64,000 nt of DNA, taken from the NCBI GenBank assembly GCA_944392955.1, contig CALXYK010000004.1, positions 69,048 to 133,047 on the forward strand, read 5' to 3'. Below are positions 10,551 through 55,419 of this stretch, in pieces; within the stretch, counting starts at the first letter, position 1, and each line of letters opens with the position of its first letter. Position numbers and translations under genes: made by a program. Below the pieces are notes generated by a model that saw only the letters and a program-made list of their open reading frames with translations, did no database searches and had not been told where the DNA came from. This stretch comes from an uncultured Alphaproteobacteria bacterium (GTDB taxonomy: Bacteria; Pseudomonadota; Alphaproteobacteria; Rs-D84; CACZYB01).

Positions 10551-11078
10551 ATGATATTAAGAAAAAATGATTCTGGTCGTTCCATTGTGGAAATGCTTGG
10601 AGTTTTGGCGATTATGGGTGTTATAACCGTTATGGGTATACAAGGATATTCACAGGCTATTGGAAAAATTAACCGAAATAACCTTGTAGAAGATATTACA
10701 AGAATCGCCCAAGAGGTAAGGGGACTATATGCTGGTCGTTCATCTTATAATGAAAAAGATGGCGCCGATGGTTCCGCAGGATATAATATTGGAACAAACT
10801 TACTTGCAAAAATGAATTATAAACTATCATCACCTTATGGTGGAGATTATAAAATTGAATCATTTGGAACAACAGGTAAGAACCCTGGTTTCTCTGTCAG
10901 TGTTGAAAATGTACCAGTAGAAGATTGCCTATACTTTACAACTATGGCATGGGCTGATGTTATGGAAACAACAACAGGTGTTCCTGGATCCAGTGCTTTC
11001 GCAGGAGATTCTGCACCTGCTACCGGAACAACTTGTCCTGAATCTGATACTGCTGTTATAACTCTTTATTTCAGATAG
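10551..11078 (+). CDS. Type IV pilin-like / pseudopilin protein (class III prepilin signal)
   Basis: The N-terminus carries the prepilin peptidase motif G|RSIVEMLGVLAIMGVITVMGIQGY, which has the pattern of G|FTLIELMIVVAIIG. A C-terminal Cys pair (C...C) resembles the pilin D-region loop. Local GC is noticeably higher than the surrounding sequence. Confidence 0.6.
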   Translation: MILRKNDSGRSIVEMLGVLAIMGVITVMGIQGYSQAIGKINRNNLVEDITRIAQEVRGLYAGRSSYNEKDGADGSAGYNIGTNLLAKMNYKLSSPYGGDYKIESFGTTGKNPGFSVSVENVPVEDCLYFTTMAWADVMETTTGVPGSSAFAGDSAPATGTTCPESDTAVITLYFR

Positions 11079-12179: not shown

Positions 12180-12794
12180 ATGAAATTTATATATACTATA
12201 ACTATGATAATTAAACGTTTTATTTCTGGCCCATTAGAGAATAATAATTACCTCGTTATTGATGAAAGTACAAACGAAGGTGTTTTAATAGATTGCAGTG
12301 AAATATCAAACAAAATAGATTCATACATAAGTAATAATAAAATCAATTTAAAATATATATTACTAACTCATGCACATTTTGATCATATATTAGGTGTGGA
12401 TTTTTTCAGACAAAAATACAAACCTTCTGTCTTCCTTCATAAAGATGATAAAGATTTATTAAATATGCTTAACACTTTCATTCCTAAGGCAAAAATTCCA
12501 ACTATTGATACATTTTTTGATGAAAATTTACACTTACAAATTGGAAATATAGATATAAAGATAATACACACGCCTGGACATAGTAATGGTAGTTGTTGTT
12601 TTTTAATAAAAGACAATCTTTTTTCAGGGGACACCCTATTTTACAAAGGATACGGAAGAACAGATCTTCCATTTGGAAATGAAAATAATTTATTCAAAAG
12701 TTTAACCAAACTTTTTTTACTTCCAAACGAAACAAAGGTATTTCCCGGTCATGGCTTTGAAACCAGTATAAAACAGGAAAAGTCTATTTACTAA
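12180..12794 (+). CDS. MBL-fold metallo-hydrolase (glyoxalase II / beta-lactamase-like)
   Basis: The HxHxDH motif (THAHFDHILG) plus downstream His and Asp ligands (HTPGHS, GDTLF) are present. Confidence 0.7.
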   Translation: MKFIYTITMIIKRFISGPLENNNYLVIDESTNEGVLIDCSEISNKIDSYISNNKINLKYILLTHAHFDHILGVDFFRQKYKPSVFLHKDDKDLLNMLNTFIPKAKIPTIDTFFDENLHLQIGNIDIKIIHTPGHSNGSCCFLIKDNLFSGDTLFYKGYGRTDLPFGNENNLFKSLTKLFLLPNETKVFPGHGFETSIKQEKSIY

Positions 12795-15700: not shown

Positions 15701-15931
15701 AACAACATTTAAATAAGTATTCAAACTACTATCTATCTTATCTTGAAATAGCAAAGTCCCATCATTTGTAATAATAAGTCCATTACTAGAAGGCATCTCT
15801 CCAACGCCACTTCCATCATTACTAATATAAGTAAGTGAACTATTAATAACAGAAGGCAATTGTGTATCTGCACGACAAATTTCTGAAAATGCTACCAATG
15901 CCAACAATAAAATGTACCTTAAATATTTCAT
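12791..15931 (-). CDS. Autotransporter (type Va) outer-membrane protein with a large Asn/Gly/Ser-rich beta-helical passenger
   Basis: A 1046-aa protein. The signal peptide is MKYLRYILLLALVAFSEICRA. The passenger region is repetitive (NxGxI/L-type beta-helix). The C-terminal ~280 aa has alternating hydrophobic beta-strands and ends in ...GINYLF, a terminal aromatic typical of beta-barrels. Confidence 0.7.
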   Translation of the reverse strand: MKYLRYILLLALVAFSEICRADTQLPSVINSSLTYISNDGSGVGEMPSSNGLIITNDGTLLFQDKIDSSLNTYLNVVPGGLISLSNFGKVFLYSSIGNQAVLNMNGNKLSSRNIGQIFLGSDTSFIIGNENGGIGNSYLNLIDSHLYSYSLLRNNVYGNINVVSSASDVYNDTYPSAIENFDTALLENYGSISLTGGSSYPYDRSYLIFEDASSYVSSETGKIFLNQYSDILNLSSSNFMQNLLSNIIIENDGSSQLSRILFLNPYGVSDLNMIGNSSYEVGNSASFKQFVVNSLSGSVLMDFRNQNLTIEDGAMFSILSSSDDVVFSFYNANLNINDGGWLYIGSVFNNAGQVYINDGGRLTFAPNSVYNIGTNITDQTYFFYYGLNTIPGISYDIGDISISNGAVVDIMSEDNSMWRNFLAQNIVNNGSIFLRANMQPQESIYLSGNGSFNIVDDAKLILSQPFSVEGTLNVGNSFAQTIFDKSSKGNLEVQNTSLYANTLNVLEGSFLGLYDNAIVDTDNDIMVNGLLFGNGNINLNGNSVNVSNGGYITSNINSILNIDGNLSLQNGGSYLAIISPQTTTFSPSAESKIIVSGKVSFNENSYIAAVSDARIIDGVSNKFPILVADSEDTNNPLSISQHLDLTNSLFTNYTAQWVLETEGEYAGKHVLYIIVNPSLLKINDVAGLNYNEYQVANLIDDLYDDFNLEMELNDAINFIYTGVDSVGQLKYVLDDLSVEKYATFSSFVPELNYFLLNPAKTRTNFLENVRENKNGFWIYPIFSNVTQNDIRDFDGFKNDFNGVSFGIDKMFDDNILGVSFVIGNSSFLTNDNILDVDTDVYNMTLYGAKKFDKIFVNYGFGFASFISSAEYDFSRLPSNLVAKSNFTNNLVNTYFSLGYLFSWNEFNLYPSIGTDISYVRADDFCETQAGGLNRCIDSDDFFIAQLPVSFNVSFVKYFETFALRPELFISYARLISDNNVKLNASFENTNLDFISESLPIYKNKYSVGLNLNLDFYSSFNVYFKYFSDFKEEYKNNQFMLGINYLF

Positions 15932-16153: not shown

Positions 16154-17572
16154 TTAAATATCTAATAACAACTTGTCGCTTATAATTTTATAAAAAGATA
16201 TTGACAACATAACTTTCTTGTGAATAAGACTACTGTAGGTTTCAAGACCCCCAGATTTGTTGCTGGAAGGTGTTTTCTTGGAACCTATTTCTTTTTGATT
16301 ATAAGACATTGGAATTAAATGTCTAGTAGCAACCTTATCAAGGAAGAAGTGAGCCATTTCGTGAGGTAGTGTTCCAAAGTTAAAGTTAGAACCTAGTACT
16401 ATTGCTTTTAATTCAGAATCAAAGAAGCCGTTTGCATTTTGATTTAGAATAGTGTCTTCTAAATTATTGTTGACATTAGTGTCTTGTGCTTTTGATAATT
16501 CTTTTATCCTATTTTTAATAGAATCACCAATTTTTAAATTAATTGTATTGACTTCTGTTTCTTTTGATTGTATATTAAAGTTATCAGCCCCTGATAAAGT
16601 GTCTTTGACGCGTTCGGGGGTTGTTTTAACTCTTACATTATATAAATCCAAGATGTTTTTATCTTGTCCTTTTACTTGTTCTGTTGCAAGTTCTACATCA
16701 TAATTTTTACCATTTATAATTATTGGACTTTTAAAATATATATATTTATCTATATTTGCTTTATGTTCTAAAGTTTCTTTTCTTGTATTATGTGATAAAT
16801 CTACATTTTCTTCATTTGTTTTAGTTGCATTATTTATTATTTTTTCAATACTATTAAGTGATGTTTGATGTCGTCTTTTTTGCCTATTATTTAATTTAAC
16901 ATTAGAGCGAATAACGTGTGCTTTATTTCCATCTGTAATTTGTATTTGTAAAGGTGGAGTAGATGTATCAAGAGGTTTTCCTATAAGTTCGTTGATATAC
17001 TTTTCAATATCTTTTTCTGTAATATTACCATCTTTAATATTTTTAAATTCTTCAGAAAGGTCTACTACATTACTACTTACTTCTCCTACTTCTTCTTGAA
17101 ACAGTATCTTTTCTACTGTATTGTCTACATCATTAGTATTCATAAAGACTGACTTAAGGTCCTTATCTGTAATTACTCCATCTTTGATTAAGCCGTCTGT
17201 TATAGAACTTTCTTGTAGAGTTTGAAGTGCTATATCTCTTTTTGTAAAAGAAATATTTTTTTTATTTTCTTTACGGCTCAATTTATCAACATAATTTTCT
17301 AAAAATTCTTGAGTTTGAACATCAGAACCGAATGTAAAAGCATAAAGTAAAGCATTAACATTTGTATCATTACCTACAACCATTGAAAAGTTTTCTTTGT
17401 TTGTATTTGGTAGTTTTGTTAAAACTTGTTGGAGTTCTTTGTTTAAATCTGTCTTTTTACCAATACTTACAATATCAGGAATGTTTGCTATGATATTTCT
17501 TTTTGCTACCGGTATTCTGTCTTCAAGTACTAAACTTTGATATAATGTTTTATTTTTAAGGATATTCGCCAT
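16154..17572 (-). CDS. Signal-less 472-aa protein with a C-terminal HExxH zinc-metallopeptidase-like motif (HEMAHFF); candidate secreted effector or toxin
   Basis: There is no signal peptide. The middle is long and charged. The C-terminal block GTLPHEMAHFFLDKVATRHLIP carries HExxH. Two DNA segments of this gene (16308-16334 and 16425-16485) recur in the upstream intergenic region (see pseudogene). It lies between an autotransporter and tRNA-Leu. Confidence 0.55.
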   Translation of the reverse strand: MANILKNKTLYQSLVLEDRIPVAKRNIIANIPDIVSIGKKTDLNKELQQVLTKLPNTNKENFSMVVGNDTNVNALLYAFTFGSDVQTQEFLENYVDKLSRKENKKNISFTKRDIALQTLQESSITDGLIKDGVITDKDLKSVFMNTNDVDNTVEKILFQEEVGEVSSNVVDLSEEFKNIKDGNITEKDIEKYINELIGKPLDTSTPPLQIQITDGNKAHVIRSNVKLNNRQKRRHQTSLNSIEKIINNATKTNEENVDLSHNTRKETLEHKANIDKYIYFKSPIIINGKNYDVELATEQVKGQDKNILDLYNVRVKTTPERVKDTLSGADNFNIQSKETEVNTINLKIGDSIKNRIKELSKAQDTNVNNNLEDTILNQNANGFFDSELKAIVLGSNFNFGTLPHEMAHFFLDKVATRHLIPMSYNQKEIGSKKTPSSNKSGGLETYSSLIHKKVMLSISFYKIISDKLLLDI

Positions 17573-22158: not shown

Positions 22159-22225
22159 AACAACAAAATCTTGTCTTAATCATAAAATTATGATACAATA
22201 TATAAATCACAGGGGCAATAAAAAA

Positions 22226-24955
22226 ATGAGTGAATTTAAACTATCAACAGAAAACGATAAAAAAATAGATGAATTTAAAAATTTAAAATCTAAATATGAT
22301 GATTTTAATAAAGTATATGGTTTCAGAAAAATAAACCCTGTATACATATATATCACTGCTATTGTGTTAAGTTTGGTATGGATTGGACTTTTAATATATT
22401 ATGCAAGCAATAGTGTTTATAACTGGTCCTCATTGTTTAAAATGCTTCCTCATGAATTTGGTGGTTTTTTAGCAGGAACTATCGTTCCCATCGGCTTTAT
22501 ATGGATGGTCGCCCTTTACATAGATAAAAATATCAATTCCAATTATGAACATGAGGTAATTTACCCATTTTTACAAAGTATAATTGATCCACATGGGGAT
22601 ACATCTGTTATAACAAAGGTAATCACAAAAAAAATAGAAACAGAAACAACTGAATTAAAAAATACTATTAACAAATTTGTAGAATATTCTGAAAAATTAA
22701 GCAACATTCACAATGCTATATCTGAAAAGGTAAACAATACTATCCTATCTATAAAGGAACATGAAACTCATCTAAAATCTATTACAAATAATCTAAACAC
22801 CTCAACCGAGTCAATAGATGGTAAAGTCAGAAACATTTTAGAAATTATTTCAGAAAATATCGGATTATTAGTTGACACAACAAACAGCGCCGAAGAAAAA
22901 ACAAATTCTATAACAAAAAATTTATTATCAGAAACTGAAAAATTGGAAACCACCATTGAAAAAACCGCTAATATAGTAGAGGTAATCTCCCAAACAATAG
23001 ATACTAACTCTCTAAATATAGAAAGTTCCACAAAAAATGCTATCCAAAAGGCAAAGGAGATAGAAGAAACCTTTGATACAATTGGCAATAGAATTGTATC
23101 TTCTACCGAAGTAAGTGAAATACGTGCTAATCAATTATTAAACAACATTGAAGATAAAACAAATAACATCATTCAAAAAACAAATTTATCAGCAACAAAA
23201 ATAAACTATATGTATGAAACTATTTCATCGCTAATTGACACAATGGAAAAAATATCAAACGAACATAAAAAAGTATCAGAAAACAATTTACAAACTATCA
23301 ACACCCAATCAACTAATATAATAAAGGAATTAAAAGAACAAACCGAAAAATTTGAATATAATACAGGTTCTATCTTAGAAACTATCAATAACATAGAGGA
23401 AAAATTCAGCAATATAAACAACGGAATCGAAGGTATATCAAACAATATAATTCAACATTTCAAAGACATTGCCCTTGAAATAAAGGAGCAAAAAGATCAA
23501 CTTTACTCAACTTCTAACGAGGTAAGTCAAAATATAGATAGTGTATCTGAAAAATTTTTATTAGAAAAAAATCTATTTATTTCCTCAATATCAGATATAA
23601 AAGAAATTGCTACACAAACATCTGAAAATATGAAATCATCAGCAAACGATATAATTTTTACATCAAACAATATAAAAGGTACTGCACAAGAAATAAACGA
23701 ACTTATTACAAATTCCAGTAAAAATCTCAGTGCTCAAGCCGAAATAACATCAAAAGTTGCACACGATATAAAAACAACACTAACAAATGAAATAAATAAT
23801 TTAGAAGAGCTTGCAAACACCGTCGCAACTCAAAATAGATTGAGTGAAATGTCAATAGAAGAAGAAGGCAAAAAACTATCAAATATTACCGAAGAATTGT
23901 TAATTAAAATAGGCACCATGAACAGCAAGATATCTTCCACAATAAACAATATTTTAAACCTAAGTGGACAACTTGATAACAAATTCAATTCTATAAACGA
24001 AAACATTTTACAAAAATCTACACAGGCAGCAAAAATCATAAATGATAGCGTGGAAAGAAGTGTAAACTCATCAAATAATTTCAGGGAAATATCTTCTCAA
24101 TTTATTGAAAATTCAACAAAAACCAACTCTGACATAAACAAACTTATCTCCGAACTTAAAAAAGAAACAATGGTATTAGATGGCACTACAAAATCAGCCA
24201 AGGAATTAGTCGGAAGCATTTCTGCAGAAATTATAAAGGCTGCACAAAATATACCTGAACTAAATTCTAATATTCATAATATAAATAATAACTTAAAAAC
24301 TACCAACCAAAACATAGACCAAAGTATTTTAAATACAACTAAAAAAACAAATGAACTTATTCAAAATTTAAATCAAATAGAAAACAAATTTTCAAGGTTT
24401 GTAAACGAAAAATCATCCGAAATGGATTTAATTACAAATTCATCTACCCAAGCAATAACAAAAATTGCAAATTACACAAATAAATTAAATCAAGAAACAA
24501 AACAAACATTAGAAGATTTAAAAACACAATACGAAACTATACAAAATATATCTGGTTTAAACAAATCAAACTCAAATATAAAAACAACTAACACAAGTAA
24601 TTTTTTAAATGAAGCAGGTTTCATAATAGAAAAACTAAACTCTATTTCAATAGATATTTCATCAATACTATCCCCTGAAATAAATCAAGAACTATGGAAC
24701 AAATATAATGCCGGACACAAAAGTGTATTTTCTAGATACCTATCAAAAACCTTAGATAAGAGACAAATAAATAGTCTACATGAACTGATACACACTAATT
24801 CCGAATTTGCACAATATGTAAAATCATTTATAAAGGAATTTAATAATATCATAGCCAAGGCATCAACAACCGATAAAAGCGAGATTTTAGTAGAAACATT
24901 AACATCAACAGATATAGGCAAAATATACATGTTATTAAGGGAAATTGTACAATAA
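22226..24955 (+). CDS. Membrane-anchored giant coiled-coil protein (about 909 aa from the internal ATG), hypothetical
   Basis: The ATG at 22226 (MSEFKLS) follows an AGGGG SD; the ORF track begins earlier, at 22190. There are two N-terminal TM helices (IYITAIVLSLVWIGLLIYYA; FGGFLAGTIVPIGFIWMVALYI). After them comes ~800 aa of uninterrupted low-complexity helical sequence rich in N/I/S/T/E/K with heptad-like periodicity. A sigma70-like promoter TTGTCT-N17-TACAAT lies at about 22168-22196. Confidence 0.55.
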   Translation: MSEFKLSTENDKKIDEFKNLKSKYDDFNKVYGFRKINPVYIYITAIVLSLVWIGLLIYYASNSVYNWSSLFKMLPHEFGGFLAGTIVPIGFIWMVALYIDKNINSNYEHEVIYPFLQSIIDPHGDTSVITKVITKKIETETTELKNTINKFVEYSEKLSNIHNAISEKVNNTILSIKEHETHLKSITNNLNTSTESIDGKVRNILEIISENIGLLVDTTNSAEEKTNSITKNLLSETEKLETTIEKTANIVEVISQTIDTNSLNIESSTKNAIQKAKEIEETFDTIGNRIVSSTEVSEIRANQLLNNIEDKTNNIIQKTNLSATKINYMYETISSLIDTMEKISNEHKKVSENNLQTINTQSTNIIKELKEQTEKFEYNTGSILETINNIEEKFSNINNGIEGISNNIIQHFKDIALEIKEQKDQLYSTSNEVSQNIDSVSEKFLLEKNLFISSISDIKEIATQTSENMKSSANDIIFTSNNIKGTAQEINELITNSSKNLSAQAEITSKVAHDIKTTLTNEINNLEELANTVATQNRLSEMSIEEEGKKLSNITEELLIKIGTMNSKISSTINNILNLSGQLDNKFNSINENILQKSTQAAKIINDSVERSVNSSNNFREISSQFIENSTKTNSDINKLISELKKETMVLDGTTKSAKELVGSISAEIIKAAQNIPELNSNIHNINNNLKTTNQNIDQSILNTTKKTNELIQNLNQIENKFSRFVNEKSSEMDLITNSSTQAITKIANYTNKLNQETKQTLEDLKTQYETIQNISGLNKSNSNIKTTNTSNFLNEAGFIIEKLNSISIDISSILSPEINQELWNKYNAGHKSVFSRYLSKTLDKRQINSLHELIHTNSEFAQYVKSFIKEFNNIIAKASTTDKSEILVETLTSTDIGKIYMLLREIVQ

Positions 24956-41821: not shown

Positions 41822-41935
41822 AATAAACTCCTATAAAGTTCAAGGGATAAGATTATCCAATTATTAAAAACACTAATGTTTTATACTCATTTTTCAAAAT
41901 TTTCAAGTAATTATTAAAAAGAAAGAATTATTTTA

Positions 41936-41964
41936 TTGATTAGAAGTAAAAAAAATGCTATAAT
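41936..41964 (+). promoter_or_regulatory. Sigma70-like promoter (TTGATT-N17-TATAAT) for paralog A
   Basis: TTGATT at 41936-41941, a 17-nt spacer, and TATAAT at 41959-41964. The ORF-track TTG start at 41936 is actually the -35 element. The real ATG is at 41987. Confidence 0.45.
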
Positions 41965-41986
41965 AAATAGTATAAAAAGGGATAAA

Positions 41987-43447
41987 ATGAGGAAAACAAA
42001 AGGATTCATAACATGTTTACTTTTTGTATCAATATATCTTATTGATACTCCTTTTGTTAAGGCACAACGCAATTCTCGTCGTCAAACCAAAACAACAACC
42101 GCTTCAAACTATGCTTCATCATCTGGATTACGAACTAATACAACATTAAGATGTGATAAACCTGGTGATCCTGGATGTATCGGAAGTCAGGGAAGTGCTT
42201 TTCTATCCTGTGGTAAAAATGCTCAAAAAAATAGTTCTCAAACCGCATGTGAATGTATAGATCCACTAAATTATGTAATAAATCCTGCAAATCCAAATGA
42301 ATGTATTGCTAAAACAGATTCTTTTGCAATCGCAGGTAAAAAGGCATGTGGTAATGCCTTAATAAATGCAATAGAAATTGAATGTGAAAATTCTTTCTAT
42401 AACAACGGAATGAATGAGGATAACACAATAAAATGTTATGATGCAAACGACTTATTCTTAAAATTTGACACCTCATCAATAGTTGTTTTTATAGAAGGCA
42501 TTCAATACAAATATGACGATGCATGCTATGCATATACCGAGGAATTAACAAAAAGCATTGCCGAAGATTATAATTTAACAGGTGCAAATTCACCAAATTG
42601 TAAATTAAAACGAACCATTGCCGAGGCATCAAACGAATGTTTTCAGGCAGTATTATCAACAGGAAAGGCAATGGGAGCAACCAATGCAATAGAAACCAAA
42701 CTTGAAAGTCTTTGTGGTATACAGGGGTTAAGGACAAAATGGACTAAATTATTCGGGGAAGAGGAGTTAAAGGGAATAATATTCCCAACAAATATTCCTC
42801 AACTATATATCAATGCTGGTAAGTTAAACCCTGCTGATGGTTTAGAATTAGTTGGAAATGTTCTTGATGGGAAATTCACCGACAAAAGTAATACTTGGGA
42901 AAGGGATATAACTATGATATTAAATTCCCACCTAAACGAAGTTGCCAGTGCCTGTGGACAGGAATATGCCACACAAATGCACAATACCGACATACAGATA
43001 TCAGATGAAAAATCATCTCTTCAAAGAGCTATTGACGAACAAGGTAGCATAAAGGGTGCACAAACATGGATAATGCAACAAGCATCTACTATAATAGGTG
43101 AAAACAAGGCAAATAAACTTGTCCGCGAAGGAACAATTGGCGGCATTAAGGATGAAGATATAGGAAACAACTCTTCAACAACAATATTAGAGTTAAGCCA
43201 AATCACCGAAGAAGAATTAGCACAACAAAACAACTTAACTTCTGGAATATATCTATTAACTTCTGGGAATAAGTATAGAATTGTTGAAATAAGGAAAACT
43301 GGAACAGGTACAACTGCAACAATTGAATATAAAACCATTCCATATTCAAACGATTTACAACTTTCCACTGATGCTTTAAAAGCAATAATTGGAAAAGAGG
43401 AAGATACAACATTAAACCAAAATGATTATATATCATTAGATAATTAA
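41987..43447 (+). CDS. Secreted protein, paralog family member A (Arg-rich mature N-terminus, conserved Cys blocks)
   Basis: ATG at 41987 (MRKTKGF...). The signal peptide is ...IDTPFVKA|QRNSRRQTKTTTAS. The shared block ITMILNSHLNEVASACGQEYATQMHNTDIQISDEKSSLQRAIDEQGSIKG aligns with members B and C. Confidence 0.65.
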   Translation: MRKTKGFITCLLFVSIYLIDTPFVKAQRNSRRQTKTTTASNYASSSGLRTNTTLRCDKPGDPGCIGSQGSAFLSCGKNAQKNSSQTACECIDPLNYVINPANPNECIAKTDSFAIAGKKACGNALINAIEIECENSFYNNGMNEDNTIKCYDANDLFLKFDTSSIVVFIEGIQYKYDDACYAYTEELTKSIAEDYNLTGANSPNCKLKRTIAEASNECFQAVLSTGKAMGATNAIETKLESLCGIQGLRTKWTKLFGEEELKGIIFPTNIPQLYINAGKLNPADGLELVGNVLDGKFTDKSNTWERDITMILNSHLNEVASACGQEYATQMHNTDIQISDEKSSLQRAIDEQGSIKGAQTWIMQQASTIIGENKANKLVREGTIGGIKDEDIGNNSSTTILELSQITEEELAQQNNLTSGIYLLTSGNKYRIVEIRKTGTGTTATIEYKTIPYSNDLQLSTDALKAIIGKEEDTTLNQNDYISLDN

Positions 43448-43457
43448 GGAGAAAAAT

Positions 43458-44819
43458 ATGACTAAAAAATTAATTGCATTGATAGGACTTTCACTATTAT
43501 TTTCACCTCAATCCAATGCGGCAAGGAATACACGTAGAGCAAGCAGTAATACACGATCTGCCTCTCAAAATGTTAGGGTAACAGGACGCACCGTAAACAT
43601 AAATGCGAATGTTTCTGATACTACATATACAGAAACAGATTACTCTAAAATAGCACCCGCAACAGATCCTATTGCAAAAAGGAAATGTACCGAACTTGTA
43701 GTAGAAGCCCTAACCGAATATTGTGGCACTGATGAAGAAAACAAGGAATGTAATAATACGACAGAAGGTTCAAATGAATCTTGTGGCACTGTTAAAAAAT
43801 GTAAAAATGCAACAGAAGCCTATGCAAAAATAAAAATAGAAGATAATCCAAACGGACCTAACGAAATTTATTGTGCTAATTTCATAGAAGAGGCAGTAAA
43901 CAACCTATGGGATTCATTCGATACTTACAAGGCAACAAATGAAAAAAATTGTAATATTGCTTTGGCACGATCCCTTGCTGCCGAAGAATGTTATAGATAT
44001 GCATTAACACAAAAAAATGTTAGATTCTCCATAAACTCCTTTGAAACATTCAAAGAAGAAGAACTCTCAATGTGTAATAAAGCAGCCGTTGTAAAAATAT
44101 ATAAAACAATATCAAACGGAGATACTATAACAGAAGATGAAGCTGGTGACAATATTGCAAGTTATTTTTCCAAGGTTGGTGCAAGTGGCTGGACAAATCT
44201 AGCAGTATACACAAGATTGCTTGACGCAAACGTTGATCTTACAACAACTGAATTCCCACGTGATTTAATCTTATTGGTAAATAGTTTGAAATCCCAAGGA
44301 AATATGATGTGTGGTCAGGATCATTATACCGAACTTGTTGATGCAAATATCCAATTGATTGATAAGACTGGATCTTGGGAAAAACAAATCAAAGAAAAAG
44401 GAGCAATTGCTGGTACCGCAGATTATATTGCAGATACAACAGAATCTATCGTAAATCTAAGGACTTTATTGTCTAATACAATAAAATCAGACAAAGCTGA
44501 AAAAACAGCTCAAAATGCAGAAAAAGCAACTGAAAAACTAGCAGAAATAGATAATGACATTACAATCATAACTGCAAATATTTCAAGATTATCAGATGAG
44601 AACAAAAACAAAAAAGATACAGATAATAACGAAGATTTATCTTTATCAGAACACTTAAATAAAATTTCTGATTTACGAAATAATCTTCCTGAACAAACTG
44701 CAAATGACTACTCTGATAAAATAAAAGAGCTAGAAAAGGAAATCAAAAACACAAAAACTAAATTTAAAAAAGTAAAAGGTAATGAAATAGACTATAATAT
44801 CAACTACCGAAATTCATAA
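43458..44819 (+). CDS. Secreted protein, paralog family member B
   Basis: An SD (AAGGAG) precedes the ATG at 43458. The signal peptide is ...LLFSPQSNA|ARNTRRASSNTRSAS. It shares blocks with C: KRKCTELVVEALTEYCG, NNLWDSFDTYKATNEKNCNIALARSLAAEECYRYALTQKN, and FPRDLILLVNSLKSQGNMMCGQDHY...WEKQIKEKGAIAG. Confidence 0.7.
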   Translation: MTKKLIALIGLSLLFSPQSNAARNTRRASSNTRSASQNVRVTGRTVNINANVSDTTYTETDYSKIAPATDPIAKRKCTELVVEALTEYCGTDEENKECNNTTEGSNESCGTVKKCKNATEAYAKIKIEDNPNGPNEIYCANFIEEAVNNLWDSFDTYKATNEKNCNIALARSLAAEECYRYALTQKNVRFSINSFETFKEEELSMCNKAAVVKIYKTISNGDTITEDEAGDNIASYFSKVGASGWTNLAVYTRLLDANVDLTTTEFPRDLILLVNSLKSQGNMMCGQDHYTELVDANIQLIDKTGSWEKQIKEKGAIAGTADYIADTTESIVNLRTLLSNTIKSDKAEKTAQNAEKATEKLAEIDNDITIITANISRLSDENKNKKDTDNNEDLSLSEHLNKISDLRNNLPEQTANDYSDKIKELEKEIKNTKTKFKKVKGNEIDYNINYRNS

Positions 44820-44837: not shown

Positions 44838-44870
44838 AAAAAAACTCCTATCAAATAGGAGTTTTTTTTA
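44838..44870 (+). terminator. Rho-independent terminator after paralog B
   Basis: AAAAAACTCCTAT-caa-ATAGGAGTTTTTTTTA. Confidence 0.65.
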
Positions 44871-44914
44871 AATAATCCTTGCCCTACTTTCAAAACAATG
44901 ATATAATGAATGGT

Positions 44915-47362
44915 ATGAAAAAATTTTTATTTGCATTATTTTTATTTTTCACAATTCCTGTTTTTGCAAACGATGGAACCGATAATTCTGTAAAAAAACA
45001 ATTAAACATAAAATTTGAACAAAACACTCCAAATAATTTAAAAAAGGCAGCATCAAAATTTATTGAAATAAAGGATCTATATTGTCAAAATAACAACAAT
45101 GCCTTATGTTCAAAATCATATCAATATTCAAATATTTTATCTCAAATAAACACCGCAACCTTTGAACCTACTACTGAAAATTTTCAACTTATTGCAAATT
45201 TTTATAAGGAATTACAGGAATTTTCCAACGAACAAAACAGAATTGAAACCGCCAATAAAAATGACCTTATCGCTCAAATACAAACTAAAAAAACTTTGTT
45301 AAAAACTAACCTAAATAATTTAATAGACTTATTAAATAAGGAAAATTCATTACTTCCAAACCCATTACCACAGGATAAACAATTATCAAAGAATCTAACC
45401 AAACTTTCAAAGGATGATTTAAATAAAAACGACACAAATTTAAAAACACGACAAACCCAACTTACAAATTTAAAATTGCATAATGCACAAAAGGAAATAA
45501 CTTCTGATATACAAATACCTGAAAATATACAAAATTTATCAGAACAAGAATTGAAAAATATTTTACAAACAATAAGTGAGCAGGAAACTGCTATCAACAA
45601 CCAAATTCAACTTACAAATAACAATATAACTATTTTAGAAACAGAAAATGCATCTAAGGAAGCAGAATACAAAAATCTTTTACAAGAATTAACAAAGGCA
45701 AAACAAAAACAGGCTGAACTTTTAAATAAAAAAGATCTTGTCCCAGATAATAAAGGTAATGATAAAAATACCAACGACAAATTATTCAACGAACTTAAAA
45801 ATACAATTACTGATGAAAATAAAAATAATATTAAACAATACAATATCGTTGCAGAATCTTATTCTACAAACGAAGACATTGAAAAGATAAAACAAGAAAT
45901 AGAAAATGTAAATAATAACACAAAACTTCTTGAAAACTTCTTAAATAATCAAAAAAATGAATTGGAAAAATGTGAAAAGGAATTATCATCTATAATAACA
46001 AATATTGATGAATTAAAACCTATGACACTTGAACAATGTCAAAAGGAACTTAAAAAAGCACAAGATGAAAAAATAGAAAAAGAATGTATCGCAGAAAGAT
46101 TAAAGGAATGTTCCGATGAAATAGGAAACCTAAAATCTTTATTCAAATCATCTGTTCAAAATGGAACACCTGACGGATACAAATACCTATACGAAAGTAG
46201 AACTTCATATTGTGCCGATGAAAACAATCCTGTATATGGTGTTGAATGGGTTGGCAATGTTGCTAAAAAAGTAGATACTTTGAAATGGATGTTAAAACCA
46301 ACAAAAAATGTGGAAAATAATCAATGTAGATACAATAATTCCCTACACACAATTACAATATTATCTTTATCCGATGCAAAGGAAAAACTTAAAACTTGTG
46401 TCCGTGATTTAAGACTATTGCAAGAAATAGAAAAGGAATGTAGCGGACTAACTCCTTTACCTGACATATCTGAGATAAAGGGAAGTTCCAATGTTGAAAA
46501 TTATATAAACATAAAGGAAAGCGATTTTAATCAATGTCAAAATAGCATAACTTTATACAAAGGTGTACCTAATACAGCTACTATCGGAAACAACAAGGCA
46601 ATAAAATATTGTAGGAATGCTATTGCATCCGAAGCTTGCAACACCTATCTTGCTGGTGCAATATTGAAATACAAACAAAAAGGATATAATTATTCTTTAA
46701 CCATTCCTGATAACAAATTATCTACCTGTAAATCATACATAGAAGAAAGTTTATGTAATAAATACAGGACAGAAAATAGTATAACTGAAAAACCAACTAC
46801 ACAAAGTGGACAGGAAAGTTATGCCTATACAACTCAGTGTCTAGAATTAGATAATGCTTATGCAAAGATAAAGGAAAATCTAAATTCTATTTCCAGCAGT
46901 GAAATAACATCTTTGGGACAAATAATAAAAAATCAATATGGAAATTTATCTTGTGGATATGGTTGTAGTGCAAGTAGTTTGTTAAAGCGTTCTGATGCAA
47001 ATGATGGTAAGTATCAATCATCTTATGACAGCCAAATAAAATCTTTTGCTGAAAAATATAATGCATTATGTAAATACAATGATAAAACAAGTGCAATACA
47101 AAAAGTTGGAAAAGAAAAAAATAATAATCAATCAAAATACAAAGATGGTTCAATAGATAGCGAAATAGAAAATATTGAAGACATAATGTTTTTAAGGTTA
47201 AAGGAGTTAAATGTCCTAAACAAAAGTCAATTCAATGGAACATCATTAGATTTTCAAAAGAAAAGTTTTGCAAAATTCTTGTTCCATATATACATATACC
47301 ACCATAACTTAAACGCATCTGGATCAATATGTGATCAGGCAAAGGTAATAAGCGAACACTAA
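44915..47362 (+). CDS. Large secreted coiled-coil protein with a Cys-rich C-terminal third (about 815 aa)
   Basis: ATG at 44915 (MKKFLFALFLFFTIPVFA|NDG signal peptide). Residues ~100-430 are Asn/Lys/Glu/Leu-rich coiled-coil. The C-terminal ~350 aa carry at least 20 Cys in spaced pairs. A short motif NAYAKIKEN echoes member B (EAYAKIKIEDN). Confidence 0.6.
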   Translation: MKKFLFALFLFFTIPVFANDGTDNSVKKQLNIKFEQNTPNNLKKAASKFIEIKDLYCQNNNNALCSKSYQYSNILSQINTATFEPTTENFQLIANFYKELQEFSNEQNRIETANKNDLIAQIQTKKTLLKTNLNNLIDLLNKENSLLPNPLPQDKQLSKNLTKLSKDDLNKNDTNLKTRQTQLTNLKLHNAQKEITSDIQIPENIQNLSEQELKNILQTISEQETAINNQIQLTNNNITILETENASKEAEYKNLLQELTKAKQKQAELLNKKDLVPDNKGNDKNTNDKLFNELKNTITDENKNNIKQYNIVAESYSTNEDIEKIKQEIENVNNNTKLLENFLNNQKNELEKCEKELSSIITNIDELKPMTLEQCQKELKKAQDEKIEKECIAERLKECSDEIGNLKSLFKSSVQNGTPDGYKYLYESRTSYCADENNPVYGVEWVGNVAKKVDTLKWMLKPTKNVENNQCRYNNSLHTITILSLSDAKEKLKTCVRDLRLLQEIEKECSGLTPLPDISEIKGSSNVENYINIKESDFNQCQNSITLYKGVPNTATIGNNKAIKYCRNAIASEACNTYLAGAILKYKQKGYNYSLTIPDNKLSTCKSYIEESLCNKYRTENSITEKPTTQSGQESYAYTTQCLELDNAYAKIKENLNSISSSEITSLGQIIKNQYGNLSCGYGCSASSLLKRSDANDGKYQSSYDSQIKSFAEKYNALCKYNDKTSAIQKVGKEKNNNQSKYKDGSIDSEIENIEDIMFLRLKELNVLNKSQFNGTSLDFQKKSFAKFLFHIYIYHHNLNASGSICDQAKVISEH

Positions 47363-47363
47363 A

Positions 47364-47966
47364 ATGATTTCAAAACTAAAAGGCATAATAGACACAATAA
47401 CTGATAACCAAATAATAGTAGATGTAAATGGTGTCGGATATGGTGTCTTTGTATCACTATCAACGATATCAAAAATAACACTAAACTCACCTATATCTTT
47501 GTGGATAGAAACCATAGTAAGAGAAGATAGCATCACTCTTTACGGATTTTTATCACAAAATGAACATGATTATTTTAATTTATTAATAACCGTTCAAGGC
47601 ATCGGGCCAAAGGCAGGATTATCAATACTATCCGCATTATCTCCCGAACAAATATCTTCTGCTATTATTTCAAACGATATTTCTGCATTTACATCTGCAA
47701 ATGGCATTGGTAAGAAAACCGCCGAACGAATAATAACAGAATTAAAAGATAAAATAACAAAAACAAATATCAACTTGGAATTATCAAATATTTCAACTGA
47801 GATAAAAACAAATACAAAAACCGAAGATGCAATTTCTGCACTTCAAAACCTTGGATACACACGATCTCAAAGTTTTGAAATAGTTGTAAAAATAATAAAC
47901 AACACCCCTGATATATCATTAAATGATTTAATAAAATTATCATTAAAAGAAATAAATAATTTCTAA
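47364..47966 (+). CDS. ruvA: Holliday junction DNA helicase subunit RuvA
   Basis: A 200-aa protein. N-terminal OB-fold (MISKLKGIIDTI...VDVNGVGYGV), two HhH motifs (GIGPKAG, GIGKKTAERI) and C-terminal domain III are present. There is no ruvB downstream. Confidence 0.85.
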   Translation: MISKLKGIIDTITDNQIIVDVNGVGYGVFVSLSTISKITLNSPISLWIETIVREDSITLYGFLSQNEHDYFNLLITVQGIGPKAGLSILSALSPEQISSAIISNDISAFTSANGIGKKTAERIITELKDKITKTNINLELSNISTEIKTNTKTEDAISALQNLGYTRSQSFEIVVKIINNTPDISLNDLIKLSLKEINNF

Positions 47967-48009
47967 AAAAACCTTTAAAAAATATAAAAATTATAGTATA
48001 ATACAAAAC

Positions 48010-49668
48010 ATGAAAAAAAGATTTTATATATTATTTTTTATATCTGTTGGTTTTTTAATAAATTCCAATGTTTTTTCAGCACCAAATCGCTCACAACGAT
48101 CCCGTTCTGCATCAACTTCTATCAATACTATTCGCGGGAATTACAATACTTCAACAAATACTTATACCGGAACTAAAACAACTACAACCACACAAACCAG
48201 TAATGATACTTTACAATGTGGTATTGCACCTGATGCGACAAACAATCTTGCAAAACGACAATGTGCAATTGCTATGGCCGAAGCGTTAAAGTTATATTGT
48301 GCTTCATATCCATGCAACAGCAAAATAAAGGTTGAACTATCTTTTAATTTTGCACTACCAAGTTTAGAAAAAATATCCTCTACAATAAATGGTGAAAGTT
48401 GTTCGGGTGCAAATCTTGATAAATTTTGTGCACCATTCCAAAGTTCTTTGATAAATAATCTTTGGGATTTATATTCTGAACAATCTATAAGAGATAGAAA
48501 AAACTGCGATATGGCAAAGGCAAAATATTCCGCAGCCCAAGATTGCTTTGCATATATACAATCTGCTAAAAACAATTCTGTCGGCAACAGATTTAGTAAA
48601 AGTAAAATCACCGAACTTGATAAAGAAATAGATAAACGATGCGGTAAAGAAGCAATCATAAATAAATATAAATCTATCAGTATTGATGATTGGACCGAAG
48701 AAGATGAAAATACATTCTTTAAAAACATAAGTTTCACTTCAAATGCAACAGGCGAACTTATAGACTCTTATCAAGGAGAAAAGCAATTATCTTCCACTGT
48801 TGCAAGTTTATTTGCAAATACAGGGGACAATACATGGAATTATGCCGGACAAATTGGAAGACTTTTTGATCTTAATTTCAGCACTAAATCTTCTACATAT
48901 CCAAGGGAGTTAGTCGTAATAGCAAACACATTTGTAACAGAAGGAGAAGCTGCTTGTGGTAAAGATTTTAAAGTTGATATGGAAACAACATCATTTGAAA
49001 TAAGTGATTCTCGCTCTGCACTTGAAAAACAAATTGCAAAGAAAGGTATATTAAAAGGATTGTTTGATTTTGGTATAGATAATACCGTTGGTGCAATAAG
49101 CGAGGATAAGGCTCAAAGTTGGAAAGAAAAAGGTATCCTCGGCAAAGTTTCAGAAAGCAAAGATAAAAAAACGGCAGAACAACTTGATAAAATTTTATCA
49201 AAATTACAAATTCTTTCAACAAATTGTAATACATCTGCTGGTAATTTTGAACAAATAACAACAGAAATAAAATTTATATTAAACGAATTAAAAACAATAA
49301 TAGGAAACACAGATAGATTTGAAGCAAACAAAGAAAAAATAAGAGAAGTTTTAGATACTATATTAACATTCAAAAGGGATCCTAACGAAGAAATAACAAT
49401 AACTTCTAATACCCAGGCTGAATTTAACTTAACAATATTAAAGTTAGAAACTTTAAGATTTACATGTCCAAATGGCGACTTTAATACAACTGAACAAGAA
49501 ACTATCCAGTATGAATTTAGTTATGATACTTCTGCTCCTAATGTAATAAATACCATACTAAATTCTTTAAAGGAAAGTGTAATATTTACAGGAACATTGA
49601 TATATTCTGATTATGAAAATGGTGAAGAAATCAAACAAATATTAGCACCACTAAATGATATAAAATAA
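48010..49668 (+). CDS. Secreted protein, paralog family member C
   Basis: The signal peptide is ...INSNVFSA|PNRSQRSRSASTSINTIRGN. The blocks KRQCAIAMAEALKLYCAS, NNLWDLYSEQSIRDRKNCDMAKAKYSAAQDCFAYIQSAKN and YPRELVVIANTFVTEGEAACGKDF...LEKQIAKKGILKG align with A and B. Confidence 0.7.
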   Translation: MKKRFYILFFISVGFLINSNVFSAPNRSQRSRSASTSINTIRGNYNTSTNTYTGTKTTTTTQTSNDTLQCGIAPDATNNLAKRQCAIAMAEALKLYCASYPCNSKIKVELSFNFALPSLEKISSTINGESCSGANLDKFCAPFQSSLINNLWDLYSEQSIRDRKNCDMAKAKYSAAQDCFAYIQSAKNNSVGNRFSKSKITELDKEIDKRCGKEAIINKYKSISIDDWTEEDENTFFKNISFTSNATGELIDSYQGEKQLSSTVASLFANTGDNTWNYAGQIGRLFDLNFSTKSSTYPRELVVIANTFVTEGEAACGKDFKVDMETTSFEISDSRSALEKQIAKKGILKGLFDFGIDNTVGAISEDKAQSWKEKGILGKVSESKDKKTAEQLDKILSKLQILSTNCNTSAGNFEQITTEIKFILNELKTIIGNTDRFEANKEKIREVLDTILTFKRDPNEEITITSNTQAEFNLTILKLETLRFTCPNGDFNTTEQETIQYEFSYDTSAPNVINTILNSLKESVIFTGTLIYSDYENGEEIKQILAPLNDIK

Positions 49669-54131: not shown

Positions 54132-54521
54132 ATGAAAAAAACACTACTTTTACTTTTAATAATAACATATGCAACCCCATCATATGCACTAACACTACAA
54201 ACATTAAAAGATACTCTTGAAAAATATTGTGTTCCTAATACCGCCACTTGCTTAGATCCGAAATTACAGGCGGATTATACAAACGGCAAATGTGTATGTA
54301 AAGAAGATGGTCGCTATTGGAACAAAGAAGACAGAGCCTGCGAAGAATGCACCGGACCAACAATAGTAAATGAAGAAGGTGACGGCTGTAAACCAATCAA
54401 ATGCCCTGATGGTTATGCAATAATTTTAATAACAGATGGAAATTGCCCTTCTGGATATTATCTAGCACAAATACAAAACGGAAATTGTCCTGCGGGCTAT
54501 GAACTTTGGAGTTATAAATAA
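54132..54521 (+). CDS. Small secreted Cys-rich protein (129 aa) with CPxGY-type repeats
   Basis: An SD (AACAGGAGAG) precedes the ATG. The signal peptide is LLLLLIITYATPSYA|LTLQ. There are 12 Cys, including KCPDGYAIILITDGNCPSGYYLAQIQNGNCPAGYELW. Confidence 0.6.
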   Translation: MKKTLLLLLIITYATPSYALTLQTLKDTLEKYCVPNTATCLDPKLQADYTNGKCVCKEDGRYWNKEDRACEECTGPTIVNEEGDGCKPIKCPDGYAIILITDGNCPSGYYLAQIQNGNCPAGYELWSYK

Positions 54522-54540
54522 AAAAGAAAGAGAGGAAAAC

Positions 54541-55419
54541 ATGAAACTAAAACATTCACTTTTGATATGTATAAGCGGTGGAATTGCCATCACATCACAA
54601 ACACTTAATGCACAAACATTTTACCAATGTATCCAATGCAAAAGCGGAACCTATGCCACAAGCACAGGTTGCGAACCTTGTCCAAAGGGATATTATTGCA
54701 CAGACGGAATAAAAACTGCCTGCCCTGAATTTCAGACCACTTCTAGCACAGGAAATTCAAGTAGTAGTGCTTGCCATATTCAAGAAGTAAAAATTTATGG
54801 TAAAAGTGTAACATCTGGGGTAATATCAACTCAATATGAGACTATTCCTGTAAACCATAGTGCATTCACTTGTGACAAAAACAGTTTTCCTAAATTATTT
54901 GGAACTGGTGGACTTACTCCAAGTATAAGTGGATGTGTGGTAAGTATTTTAGGACATTATACATATGATATAGGTAAATATGGCAATGGACAATATTACA
55001 ACATAGTTTGTGATGGAATACCATGTAATGAATATCATGTAGAAAAAGTAAATACCTGCTCAGCTGGATACTATATACCTTCTGGCTCAACATCGTGTCA
55101 ACCATGTGGTTATGGATACTATTGCTCTGGCGGAAAAAGAACCGGTTGTCCTGTTAATAAAACAACAACTACTACAACAGCATCAAGTTCAAGTGCTTGC
55201 ATAGATCAATATTGGGGTTTCAGATACAAAACTAGTTCTGGAACTTCAACATTAAAATATAAAATTGAACAAGTAGGTTATTGCCCTATACAAAGTGGTT
55301 GTACCTTCATTGATGCAACAGGGGCAATAGGAGGAGGAGCTGGAGGAACTTACATGGGATTATGTTCAACTAGTGGACCTTGTTCTCACCCTACTATAAT
55401 CAAATACACACCACAGTAA
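54541..55419 (+). CDS. Secreted Cys-rich repeat protein (about 292 aa) with eukaryote-like C-x-P-C-x-x-G-Y-Y-C repeats
   Basis: The ATG at 54541 follows the SD AAAGAGAGGAAAAC. The ORF-track start at 54499 overlaps the upstream gene. The signal peptide is ...ITSQTLNA|QTF. Repeats include CIQCKSGTYATSTGCEPCPKGYYCTDGIKTACPEF and CSAGYYIPSGSTSCQPCGYGYYCSGGKRTGCPVNKTT. Poly-Thr/Ser linkers (TTTTTTASSSSAC) are present. Confidence 0.6.
   Translation: MKLKHSLLICISGGIAITSQTLNAQTFYQCIQCKSGTYATSTGCEPCPKGYYCTDGIKTACPEFQTTSSTGNSSSSACHIQEVKIYGKSVTSGVISTQYETIPVNHSAFTCDKNSFPKLFGTGGLTPSISGCVVSILGHYTYDIGKYGNGQYYNIVCDGIPCNEYHVEKVNTCSAGYYIPSGSTSCQPCGYGYYCSGGKRTGCPVNKTTTTTTASSSSACIDQYWGFRYKTSSGTSTLKYKIEQVGYCPIQSGCTFIDATGAIGGGAGGTYMGLCSTSGPCSHPTIIKYTPQ

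Follow-up and report, generated by a model that had tools for sequence, protein, structure and literature searches.

A lineage-restricted, putatively exported helical protein family encoded upstream of ruvA in uncultured gut Alphaproteobacteria

Here we describe a gene, which we call T, within a 64,000-nucleotide stretch of DNA from an uncultured alphaproteobacterium (the window). T occupies positions 44915–47362 of the + strand, from an ATG at 44915 to a stop codon at 47360–47362, and its uninterrupted frame encodes 815 amino acids—the initial annotation had called the product giant, a word that this length does not bear out. We tentatively read the product as a lineage-restricted, Sec-exported, disulfide-bonded and elongated all-alpha protein of the envelope or cell surface, belonging to a small family. 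The disulfide bonding, an oligomeric coiled coil, the choice between periplasm and surface, a partnership with the neighboring paralogs A, B and C, and an adhesive or structural role are all points that we infer. For T, the present gain is a corrected start codon, a domain map, an operon layout, and a well-defined homolog set.

T is a real gene under purifying selection. Compared with L001, a contig from the same species, it carries 13 synonymous and 9 non-synonymous codon differences; within-species dN/dS in the neighboring genes ranges from 0 (clpX, with zero non-synonymous differences) to 0.46. An AT-rich, N- and K-rich composition, extreme divergence between species, and a lack of known homologs outside the clade might suggest a spurious or decaying open reading frame, a low-complexity stretch without function. 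That reading is effectively refuted: the frame is unbroken in every relative, at lengths of 583 to 1279 amino acids, synonymous changes outnumber non-synonymous ones within the species, and conservation extends to the signal peptide, the N-terminal domain with its invariant cysteines, the promoter, and the close coupling of the T stop codon to the ruvA start.

The T family is small. An exhaustive profile search of 1.84e9 representative proteins gave 29 hits at E<=1e-3, while word-indexed searches (with full-length T, with an alignment of eight orthologs, and with that alignment minus the coiled coil) retrieved the query's own cluster alone; the latter say nothing on family size, because orthologs present in the same collection went unretrieved. 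NCBI labels the T orthologs 'hypothetical protein'. T shares 19–32% identity with them and is the most diverged gene of its locus; in the same genomes, identity is 42–58% for A, 40–53% for B, 39–50% for C, 69–76% for RuvA, 80–85% for TrcR, and 87–92% for ClpX. Relatives at or below 78% ClpX identity (for example L012) have neither A/B/C nor T near clpX. As far as these sequences tell, the family is restricted to a small clade of uncultured low-GC gut/rumen Alphaproteobacteria. The host itself belongs to a low-GC gut/rumen lineage of metagenome-assembled genomes; nothing marks it as an endosymbiont, and the endosymbiont setting assumed initially is set aside. A literature search on gut RF32-type Alphaproteobacteria turned up nothing on T or on the A/B/C proteins. 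For one ortholog (L006), the 90%-identity cluster has 88 members, many of them from human-gut assemblies, with B-type proteins mixed in; the link between B and T that this mixture implied was rejected as a clustering artefact, as BLASTP of B against T from L006 gives E=2.2.

The N-terminus of T has the layout expected of a Sec signal peptide, as had been proposed from the first reading of the DNA. Residues 1–19 (44915–44971, + strand) read MKKFLFALFLFFTIPVFA and are followed by NDG, with V at -3 and A at -1; the peptide consists of MKK followed by FLFALFLFFTIPVFA, and is kept in 23/23 aligned family members. Judged by eye, the sequence shows the basic n-region, the hydrophobic h-region of 10–15 residues, and the small residues at -3 and -1 that we took to define Sec export. 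T has no lipobox—the signal peptide ends in TIPVFA before NDG, and the first cysteine is residue 57—so it does not qualify as an Lpp-like lipoprotein. Next comes a helical domain of about 125 amino acids (residues 20–146; 44972–45352, + strand), which contains the cysteine pair C57/C65 and the motif F..(I/V)..FY.EL. In the alignment of 23 members this N-domain is the best-conserved part of the family, with invariant columns at C57, C65, F90, F96, Y97, and L100, and AlphaFold models it at a pLDDT of about 66–79. The profile hits also concentrate here: for 17 of the 29, the best stretch begins at profile position 1 and ends within about position 400.

Downstream of the N-domain lies a variable long-helix, coiled-coil-like region rich in N, K, L, and E (residues 147–352; 45353–45970, + strand), which is free of cysteine and interrupted by proline. 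The stretch spans roughly 200–260 amino acids and varies greatly in length among orthologs; in L004 it contains a segmental duplication. Over residues 111–345 the composition is 18% N, 14% L, 13% K, and 9% E, with zero cysteines, and a crude a/d hydrophobicity (heptad) score reaches 0.23, against 0.136 +/- 0.017 for shuffles, about 5.7 SD higher. AlphaFold places long helices at residues 87–146, 210–271, 284–315, 319–364, and 372–411, with pLDDT values of 30–80 and proline breaks. Some 330 residues of Asn/Lys/Glu/Leu-rich, heptad-like sequence had been proposed; the composition and the predicted long helices agree with that description, and five prolines and low-confidence gaps at 148–198 and 265–290 break up the helical region.

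The C-terminal half (residues 353–815 plus the stop codon; 45971–47362, + strand) is rich in cysteine, holding 18 of the 20 cysteines of T within residues 353–806, and is predicted to be helical at a pLDDT below 50. Both the cysteine-rich character and the two peptides quoted in its favor were found in T, CQKELKKAQDEKIEKECIAERLKECSDEIG at residues 375–404 and CGYGCSASS at 680–688. Short-spaced pairs occur as CX7C (391/399), CX8C (566/575 and 605/614), and CX3C (680/684); the half also carries a conserved segment, PDGYKYLYES...C...NPVYG, and a partial tail motif, SGSIC. The claim that the pairs are regularly spaced fares differently in the single protein and in the family: T alone has 3 adjacent spacings of 8–10 against 1.4 expected (p=0.16), whereas in 22 family members taken together such spacings number 69, where 35.7 would be expected, and CX8C is the most frequent. 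In L002-type members cysteine pairs recur about every 30–40 residues, and L002 and L004 show duplications of modules or segments. Within T itself no significant internal protein repeat was found (best score 51, null 48.5 +/- 3.1), and its DNA has solely one trivial 11-nt repeat of 1.9 copies. The number of cysteines after the signal peptide is even in seven of the eight full-length positional orthologs, L004 being the exception.

T matches no known protein family in the sequence searches that we ran. Pfam, NCBIfam, and PHROG gave sub-threshold coiled-coil noise only for T and all orthologs (Fez1, SesA, DUF3450), and a search of PDB sequences with the C-terminal half gave a single chance hit at E=0.82. 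The AlphaFold model, built on an alignment with seven orthologs, is all-alpha with a mean pLDDT of 44 and is unreliable (below 50) in the cysteine-rich half; a Foldseek comparison with the PDB found nothing below E=0.9, with generic helical matches only, led by the coiled coil of PcsB at a non-significant E=0.93. The C-terminal domain thus matched no enzyme fold and no known family, a check that is incomplete because of the low pLDDT of that half, where on such a model an unrecognised enzymatic or binding fold is possible. Phage and plasmid records searched by tblastn held zero matches to T, as did the PHROG families, which argues against T being phage or plasmid cargo.

The gene order trcR / A / B / T / ruvA / C / clpX is common to all 12 related loci with readable flanks. 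T orthologs sit at the equivalent position in L002, L004–L010, L084/L085, and L082, and T always lies directly upstream of ruvA. T co-occurs with the paralogs in 12 of the 12 loci with readable flanks. All four genes are on the + strand, in line with the co-orientation noted at the outset. Paralog A (41987–43447, + strand, 486 amino acids; ABC profile E=4e-142) has a signal peptide, a basic S/T-rich linker, a cysteine-rich all-alpha core, and a normal leader with a Shine-Dalgarno sequence. Paralog B (43458–44819, + strand, 453 amino acids) starts 10 nt after A and is the most variable of the three within the species, with 89% identity to L001, compared with 99% for T and C, and a dN/dS of about 0.46. 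Paralog C (48010–49668, + strand, 552 amino acids) has a conserved TATAAT 6–7 nt ahead of its ATG.

Between B and T stands a palindromic hairpin with flanking A- and T-runs, AAAAAAACTCCTATCAAATAGGAGTTTTTTT (44838–44868), that looks like an intrinsic terminator; the scan scored it on the - strand, and the + strand reading follows from the palindrome and the downstream T-run. An equivalent hairpin with its T-run is present in L002, L004–L008, L010, and L084. It is followed by a sigma-70-like promoter (44879–44907, + strand) with a -35 element TTGCCC at 44879–44884 and an extended -10 element TGaTATAAT ending at 44907. Since only 7 nt separate this promoter from the ATG at 44915, the T mRNA would be leaderless or near-leaderless. 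The layout, with a gap of 6–7 nt before the ATG, is kept in 8/9 related loci compared (9/10 including the window), L082 being the exception; among the 10 loci, L082 lacks both the terminator and the promoter. A predicted terminator and a separate conserved promoter between the two genes indicate that transcription of T is not just a continuation of that of A and B. At its other end, T is followed after 1 nt by the ATG of ruvA (47364–47966, + strand; Pfam RuvA_N, HHH_5, and RuvA_C on the identical L001 gene), and across 10 loci the stop-to-start gap ranges from -4 to +13 nt; T and ruvA are therefore probably in one transcription unit.

T and A/B/C are alike in clade, locus, signal peptide, cysteine-richness, all-alpha prediction, and the absence of known homologs, yet homology between them is undetectable. 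The paralogs share a core of about 300 amino acids with 8 invariant cysteines in their alignment, a core that T does not have. T could in principle be a highly diverged fourth member of that group with an acquired coiled-coil insertion: it adjoins A/B/C in the same orientation, all four proteins are predicted to be all-alpha, cysteine-rich, and equipped with a signal peptide, and the six-residue string AYAKIK occurs in both T and B. We consider this very improbable. In hhalign the T and ABC profiles align over the signal peptide alone, at a probability of 3%; in no locus does either profile, ABC or T, pick up a frame of the other group; and B and T of L006 lack similarity, as given above. The motif link to B, which the initial annotation had drawn, is consistent with chance, since 13% of shuffles share a string of at least six residues with a paralog; a 6-mer is likewise common to T and the unrelated ORF 22190–24955. 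AYAKIK is not conserved in T orthologs, and in B orthologs just EAYA is semi-conserved. A PDB sequence search with the A/B/C profile gave zero hits.

How might such a protein work? T would cross the inner membrane by means of its signal peptide, and its cysteines, even in number, would be oxidised on the far side. The conserved N-domain of about 125 amino acids, stapled by C57–C65, would be the constant module, probably docking T to a conserved envelope partner, most obviously one or more of the co-inherited A/B/C proteins. The long-helix region, which is variable, could act as a spacer or stalk, and the cysteine-rich C-terminal half as the variable outward- or ligand-facing part, with CX7–9C modules gained and lost between species. 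Because T lacks an outer-membrane anchor, a lipobox, a beta-barrel, and any known secretion-system signal, its sequence does not support surface exposure, and the periplasm would be the default location. As T and A/B/C have no detectable sequence relation and a predicted terminator separates B from T, the evidence for their partnership is synteny; within so small a clade of related, reduced genomes, an invariant gene order may be a legacy of shared ancestry and not a sign of linked function. The initial proposal that T is a fibrous surface scaffold whose disulfide-rich head presents the paralogs is therefore conjectural. A more ambitious proposal is that T and A/B/C form an undescribed, lineage-specific extracytoplasmic apparatus made up wholly of disulfide-stapled helical proteins, with T as an N-domain-anchored stalk bearing a variable tip; this apparatus might form a fibril or coat on the cell surface, or attach these reduced-genome gut bacteria to a host or to particles. 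We regard this proposal as speculative and rather unlikely.

T could instead play a strictly periplasmic role, without surface exposure. It might then link the inner membrane, peptidoglycan, and the outer membrane as a scaffold or tether, or regulate enzymes of the cell wall, and would be an analog of proteins that combine a signal peptide with a coiled coil, such as CpoB, EnvC, and PcsB. T has a Sec signal and no outer-membrane targeting feature, belongs to the same unit as housekeeping genes (ruvA, followed by C and clpX) behind a conserved, constitutive-looking promoter, and finds its closest structural match, at the non-significant E-value given above, in the PcsB coiled coil. The two-fold length range (583–1279 amino acids) and strong divergence would be unexpected, though, for a fixed-width spacer or a conserved enzyme partner, and no CpoB/YbgF, TPR, LytM, or CHAP match was obtained; we judge this role unlikely, if still a serious contender. 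The envelope that would house it is of Gram-negative type, as indicated by TolB and an autotransporter within the window. TolB lies 12 kb from T, and its neighborhood speaks neither for nor against the idea of a Tol-Pal substitute; the window also encodes, besides the autotransporter (ORF 12791–15931, PF03797 at 1e-29), a PilS-type pilin.

Given its modular and strongly diverged C-terminal half, T might alternatively be secreted as an effector or a toxin-like factor against host cells or rival microbes, with the cysteine-rich region as the part that is active or binds a receptor. The organism is host-associated, and the autotransporter and pilin attest to cell-surface machinery. Against this stand a chromosomal site beside ruvA that is stable across the clade, a location off mobile elements with zero phage or plasmid matches, searches in which no toxin, enzyme, or defence family matched T, and the lack of a recognisable secretion signal beyond Sec; such a function is distinctly improbable. 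An elongated, disulfide-bonded protein of the envelope or surface remains our preferred, tentative reading of T.

For the present, T adds one more 'hypothetical protein' family, if a well-delimited one. Should the locus prove to specify a structure of the envelope or surface, four new protein families would follow from it; if true, this would be a candidate host-interaction or attachment system of widespread uncultured mammalian gut/rumen Alphaproteobacteria. The divergence and module turnover of T also make it a possible strain marker or target of diversifying selection.

Several known systems resemble T in part. CpoB/YbgF, EnvC, and PcsB are laid out as T appears to be, with a signal peptide, a coiled coil, and a C-terminal domain, but T exceeds them two- to fourfold in length and varies far more, and their TPR, LytM, and CHAP domains are undetected in it; Pfam and NCBIfam searches for YbgF and TPR found none in T, which sets it apart from CpoB/YbgF. 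Nor does T resemble the twin CX9C proteins, as there is no CHCH match and the commonest family spacing is CX8C, not CX9C. With fibrillar coiled-coil surface proteins—streptococcal M proteins and the stalks of trimeric autotransporter adhesins—T would share an elongated helical stalk whose length varies, a distal region that has diverged strongly, and an attachment region that stays constant, but it lacks LPXTG and any beta-barrel anchor of the YadA or autotransporter type, and has no sequence similarity to them; the Pfam families Autotransporter and YadA_anchor are absent from T in a search whose positive control, the autotransporter frame described above, was recovered. The Helicobacter cysteine-rich proteins (Hcp), which are Sel1-like, are exported and all-alpha, as the T family is predicted to be, although Sel1 (PF08238) has no match in T at E<=1 or in eight orthologs at E<=0.01. 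Hcp proteins are built from tandem modules of about 36–40 amino acids, each with a close cysteine pair that may staple a helix-turn-helix, and the T family may be built in a similar way. The spacing of these pairs in HcpB and HcpC is CX7C; in the T family CX8C is commonest, with weak periodicity in T itself (p=0.16), and the family is further distinguished by a different consensus, an extra conserved N-domain, and a long coiled-coil-like stalk.

The gene at 44915–47362 on the forward strand, which we call T, lies in an open frame that runs from a TTG at 44879 to the stop at 47360–47362; its start is placed at ATG 44915, the first ATG that yields the conserved N-terminus, giving a product of 815 aa. 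The NCBI model (P0001) is 818 aa long and starts three codons upstream, at 44906. Read from the sequence, the N-terminus, MKKFLFALFLFFTIPVFA followed by NDG, is organised like a classical Sec signal peptide, as the initial annotation had it, with no lipobox cysteine, and Sec export of T is supported. Residues 111–345 are rich in Asn (18%), Leu (14%), Lys (13%), and Glu (9%) and hold no Cys; a crude heptad score of 0.23 for this stretch (shuffles, 0.136 ± 0.017), together with the long helices of an AlphaFold model, makes "coiled-coil-like" a reasonable description of the helical region. The Cys-rich part follows, with 18 of the 20 Cys within residues 353–806, and the peptides quoted in the initial annotation are indeed present at residues 375–404 and 680–688.

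The Cys pairs had been called regular. Short-spaced pairs in T are CX7C at 391/399 and CX8C at 566/575 and 605/614, with CX3C at 680/684; in T alone short spacings are not significantly enriched (3 against 1.4 expected, p = 0.16), whereas over 22 family members spacings of 8–10 occur 69 times against 35.7 expected, CX8C being the most frequent. A DNA- and protein-level search of the window protein gave no significant internal repeat.

The window has a GC content of about 29% and carries alphaproteobacterial housekeeping genes (tatC, uvrC, ffh, sufS, rpoD, trcR, ruvA, clpX, cmk, and rpsA) as well as tolB and an autotransporter. Its nearest ClpX sequences (87–92% identity) come from metagenome-assembled genomes of water-deer rectum, rumen, Hadza human gut, and other animal guts—an endosymbiotic host, as presumed earlier, finds no evidence here. 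T is flanked by three forward-strand genes for exported Cys-rich proteins, A (41987–43447), B (43458–44819), and C (48010–49668), in the order trcR (reverse strand), A, B, T, ruvA, C, clpX, cmk, rpsA. This order recurs in a contig of the same species (L001) and in seven other species, where the ORF in the T position is 583–1279 aa long and has a signal peptide; the short contig L009 shows the partial order T fragment, ruvA, C, clpX, and more distant T-family members led to the same order on L084/L085 and L082. In all 12 loci with readable flanks, T has a B-type gene on one side and a C-type gene on the other and stands immediately 5' of ruvA, so that the expected co-occurrence with the paralog family holds among relatives and co-inheritance of T with three other exported Cys-rich proteins is supported. 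In relatives with ClpX identity of 78% or less, neither the T family nor the A/B/C family is found near clpX; restriction of the T family to one clade of gut Alphaproteobacteria is likewise supported.

Several other genes deserve mention. At 54499–55419 (forward) lies a predicted exported protein of 306 aa with 22 Cys, repeated GYYC and C..C.GYYC motifs, and S/T-rich linkers, its sole family match being a weak, sub-threshold Ephrin_rec_like (E = 6e-4). The type IV pilin-like product of 10551–11078 (forward) has an N-terminus of prepilin type, GRSIVEMLGVLAIMGVI, and matches the PilS N-terminal domain (PF08805, 3.6e-9); the autotransporter at 12791–15931 (reverse; 1046 aa) ends in a beta-domain (PF03797, 1e-29), its passenger being without family assignment. 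Two orphans complete the set: 22190–24955 (forward; 921 aa), with N-terminal hydrophobic segments, a long Cys-free coiled-coil-like region, and no family match, and 16154–17572 (reverse; 472 aa), whose sole match is an LPD3 domain (PF18798, 1e-6). On L084, a small gene at 1436–1822 with a weak TrbC/VirB2-pilin Pfam match and two OMP_b-brl genes stand just past rpoD, adjoining trcR-A-B-T; fabF occupies that place in the window.

Between B and T lies a terminator-like palindromic hairpin with a T-run (44838–44868), followed by a sigma-70-like promoter with a -35 element TTGCCC (44879–44884) and an extended -10, TGaTATAAT, ending at 44907, 7 nt before the ATG. Terminator and promoter, the latter 6–7 nt before the ATG, are kept in eight of nine related loci compared (L002, L004–L008, L010, and L084) as CTTGCCC or CTTGACC and TGnTATAAT, within flanking sequence that has diverged; both are absent from L082. 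We infer from these signals that T is driven by its own promoter and, since the -10 is only 6–7 nt from the ATG, that its mRNA has little or no leader and that translation truly starts at 44915, not at 44906 as in the database. Only 1 nt separates the T stop from the ruvA ATG (−4 to +13 nt in nine other loci), which makes a single T-ruvA transcription unit probable; expression of T with ruvA from a conserved promoter of its own is thereby supported at sequence level. For a recombination gene the surroundings of ruvA are unusual: it is separated from ruvB, and its operon neighbours belong to an array of exported orphans. A TATAAT conserved 6–7 nt 5' of the C ATG in nine loci (47967–48009 in the window) suggests a second, probably leaderless transcript; upstream of A (41906–41986) a promoter is followed by a leader some 20 nt long with a Shine-Dalgarno-like GGA/GAGG.

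Three word-indexed homolog searches returned only the cluster of T itself, despite the presence of orthologs in that database, and are therefore uninformative on family size. Across 1.84 billion representatives, exhaustive HMMER profile searching yielded 29 proteins at E ≤ 1e-3, of which 22 also pass E ≤ 1e-10; short fragments aside, they measure 480–1279 aa, and those with names are all "hypothetical protein". Their alignment resolves a signal peptide, an N-domain, a helical region, and a Cys-rich region. The N-domain has invariant C57, C65, F90, F96, Y97, and L100 and a motif F..I..FY.EL, then L..LN.E..L; the helical region varies greatly in length, with a segmental duplication in L004. Modules of the Cys-rich region depend on the species (L002 has internal duplications), and in many members a conserved segment opens the region, reading PDGYKYLYES...C...NPVYG in T and (F/Y).Y..LGYS elsewhere in the family; the tail ..IC.........GC.K closes a subset of the proteins, and T retains only its first half, SGSIC. 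The Cys count past the signal peptide is even in seven of eight full-length positional orthologs, compatible with disulfide bonding outside the cytoplasm, and T is very probably disulfide-bonded. Between species, no other gene of the locus has diverged nearly as far as T: its identity to orthologs is 19–32%, against 42–58% for A, 40–53% for B, 39–50% for C, 69–76% for RuvA, 80–85% for TrcR, and 87–92% for ClpX.

AlphaFold, run with seven orthologs, predicts an all-alpha protein (mean pLDDT 44) with long helices at 87–146, 210–271, 284–315, 319–364, and 372–411, separated by low-confidence, proline-containing breaks; pLDDT reaches 66–79 in the N-domain and is below 50 over residues 352–784. An elongated, all-alpha shape is supported by this model. 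Foldseek against the PDB gave generic coiled coils only, none under E = 0.9; nothing in Pfam, NCBIfam, or PHROGs significantly matches T or its orthologs, and T has no significant match in PDB sequences and none in phage or plasmid records. No enzyme fold, taken beforehand as evidence against a structural role, was thus found for the C-terminal domain, though at such pLDDT this is no clean exclusion.

We tentatively favour, at somewhat under even odds, a fibre of the envelope or surface, attached by an end that stays constant and interacting through one that varies. The constant N-domain would attach the fibre, the length-variable helical region would form its stalk, and the modular, strongly diverged, Cys-stapled distal half would interact—the pattern expected of such a fibre. 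The main rival, a purely periplasmic scaffold, seems to us rather unlikely; T has no outer-membrane targeting feature, as a scaffold of this kind would have it, but its length varies two-fold. That T is an effector is more doubtful again. Localisation, oligomerisation, and any partnership with A, B, and C, which the initial annotation suggested T might present, are putative.

A hidden paralogy of T with A, B, and C is very improbable. These three are clear paralogs: after a signal peptide and a basic S/T-rich linker they share a core, about 300 aa long, in which eight Cys are invariant; profile-profile comparison with T pairs signal peptides only (probability 3%), HMM cross-searches of the two families never match in either direction, and T is, by these comparisons, not one of them. 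The short motif earlier taken to link T to B, the 6-mer AYAKIK, is consistent with chance: 13% of shuffles give T a 6-mer or longer in common with one of the three paralogs, and T shares a second 6-mer with the unrelated ORF 22190–24955. T orthologs do not conserve AYAKIK. One 90%-identity cluster (P0030/P0031/P0033) groups the L006 T ortholog (757 aa) with B-type proteins of L006 (about 416 aa); BLASTP finds them unrelated (E = 2.2), and the cluster is probably an artefact of a fused or misassembled ORF. Least credible of all is a spurious ORF: T differs from L001 at 13 synonymous and 9 non-synonymous codons (dN/dS roughly 0.2, with estimated site numbers; the values for neighbouring genes lie between 0, in clpX, which has no non-synonymous difference, and 0.46), and this synonymous excess supports a real, functional gene under selection.

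The locus is cleanly delimited, with nothing in it known from elsewhere, and the findings are not very surprising. In the Helicobacter Hcp and Sel1-like repeat proteins Cys pairs staple helical repeats; the likeness to T is architectural only, and T does not match the Sel1 profile. The likeness to coiled-coil fibrillar adhesins is also architectural only, T being without anchor domains. CpoB, EnvC, and PcsB, periplasmic proteins with a signal peptide and a coiled coil, have the same layout, but their defining domains are missing from T. T stands outside all of these families and represents a new one, whose architecture is of a familiar kind.
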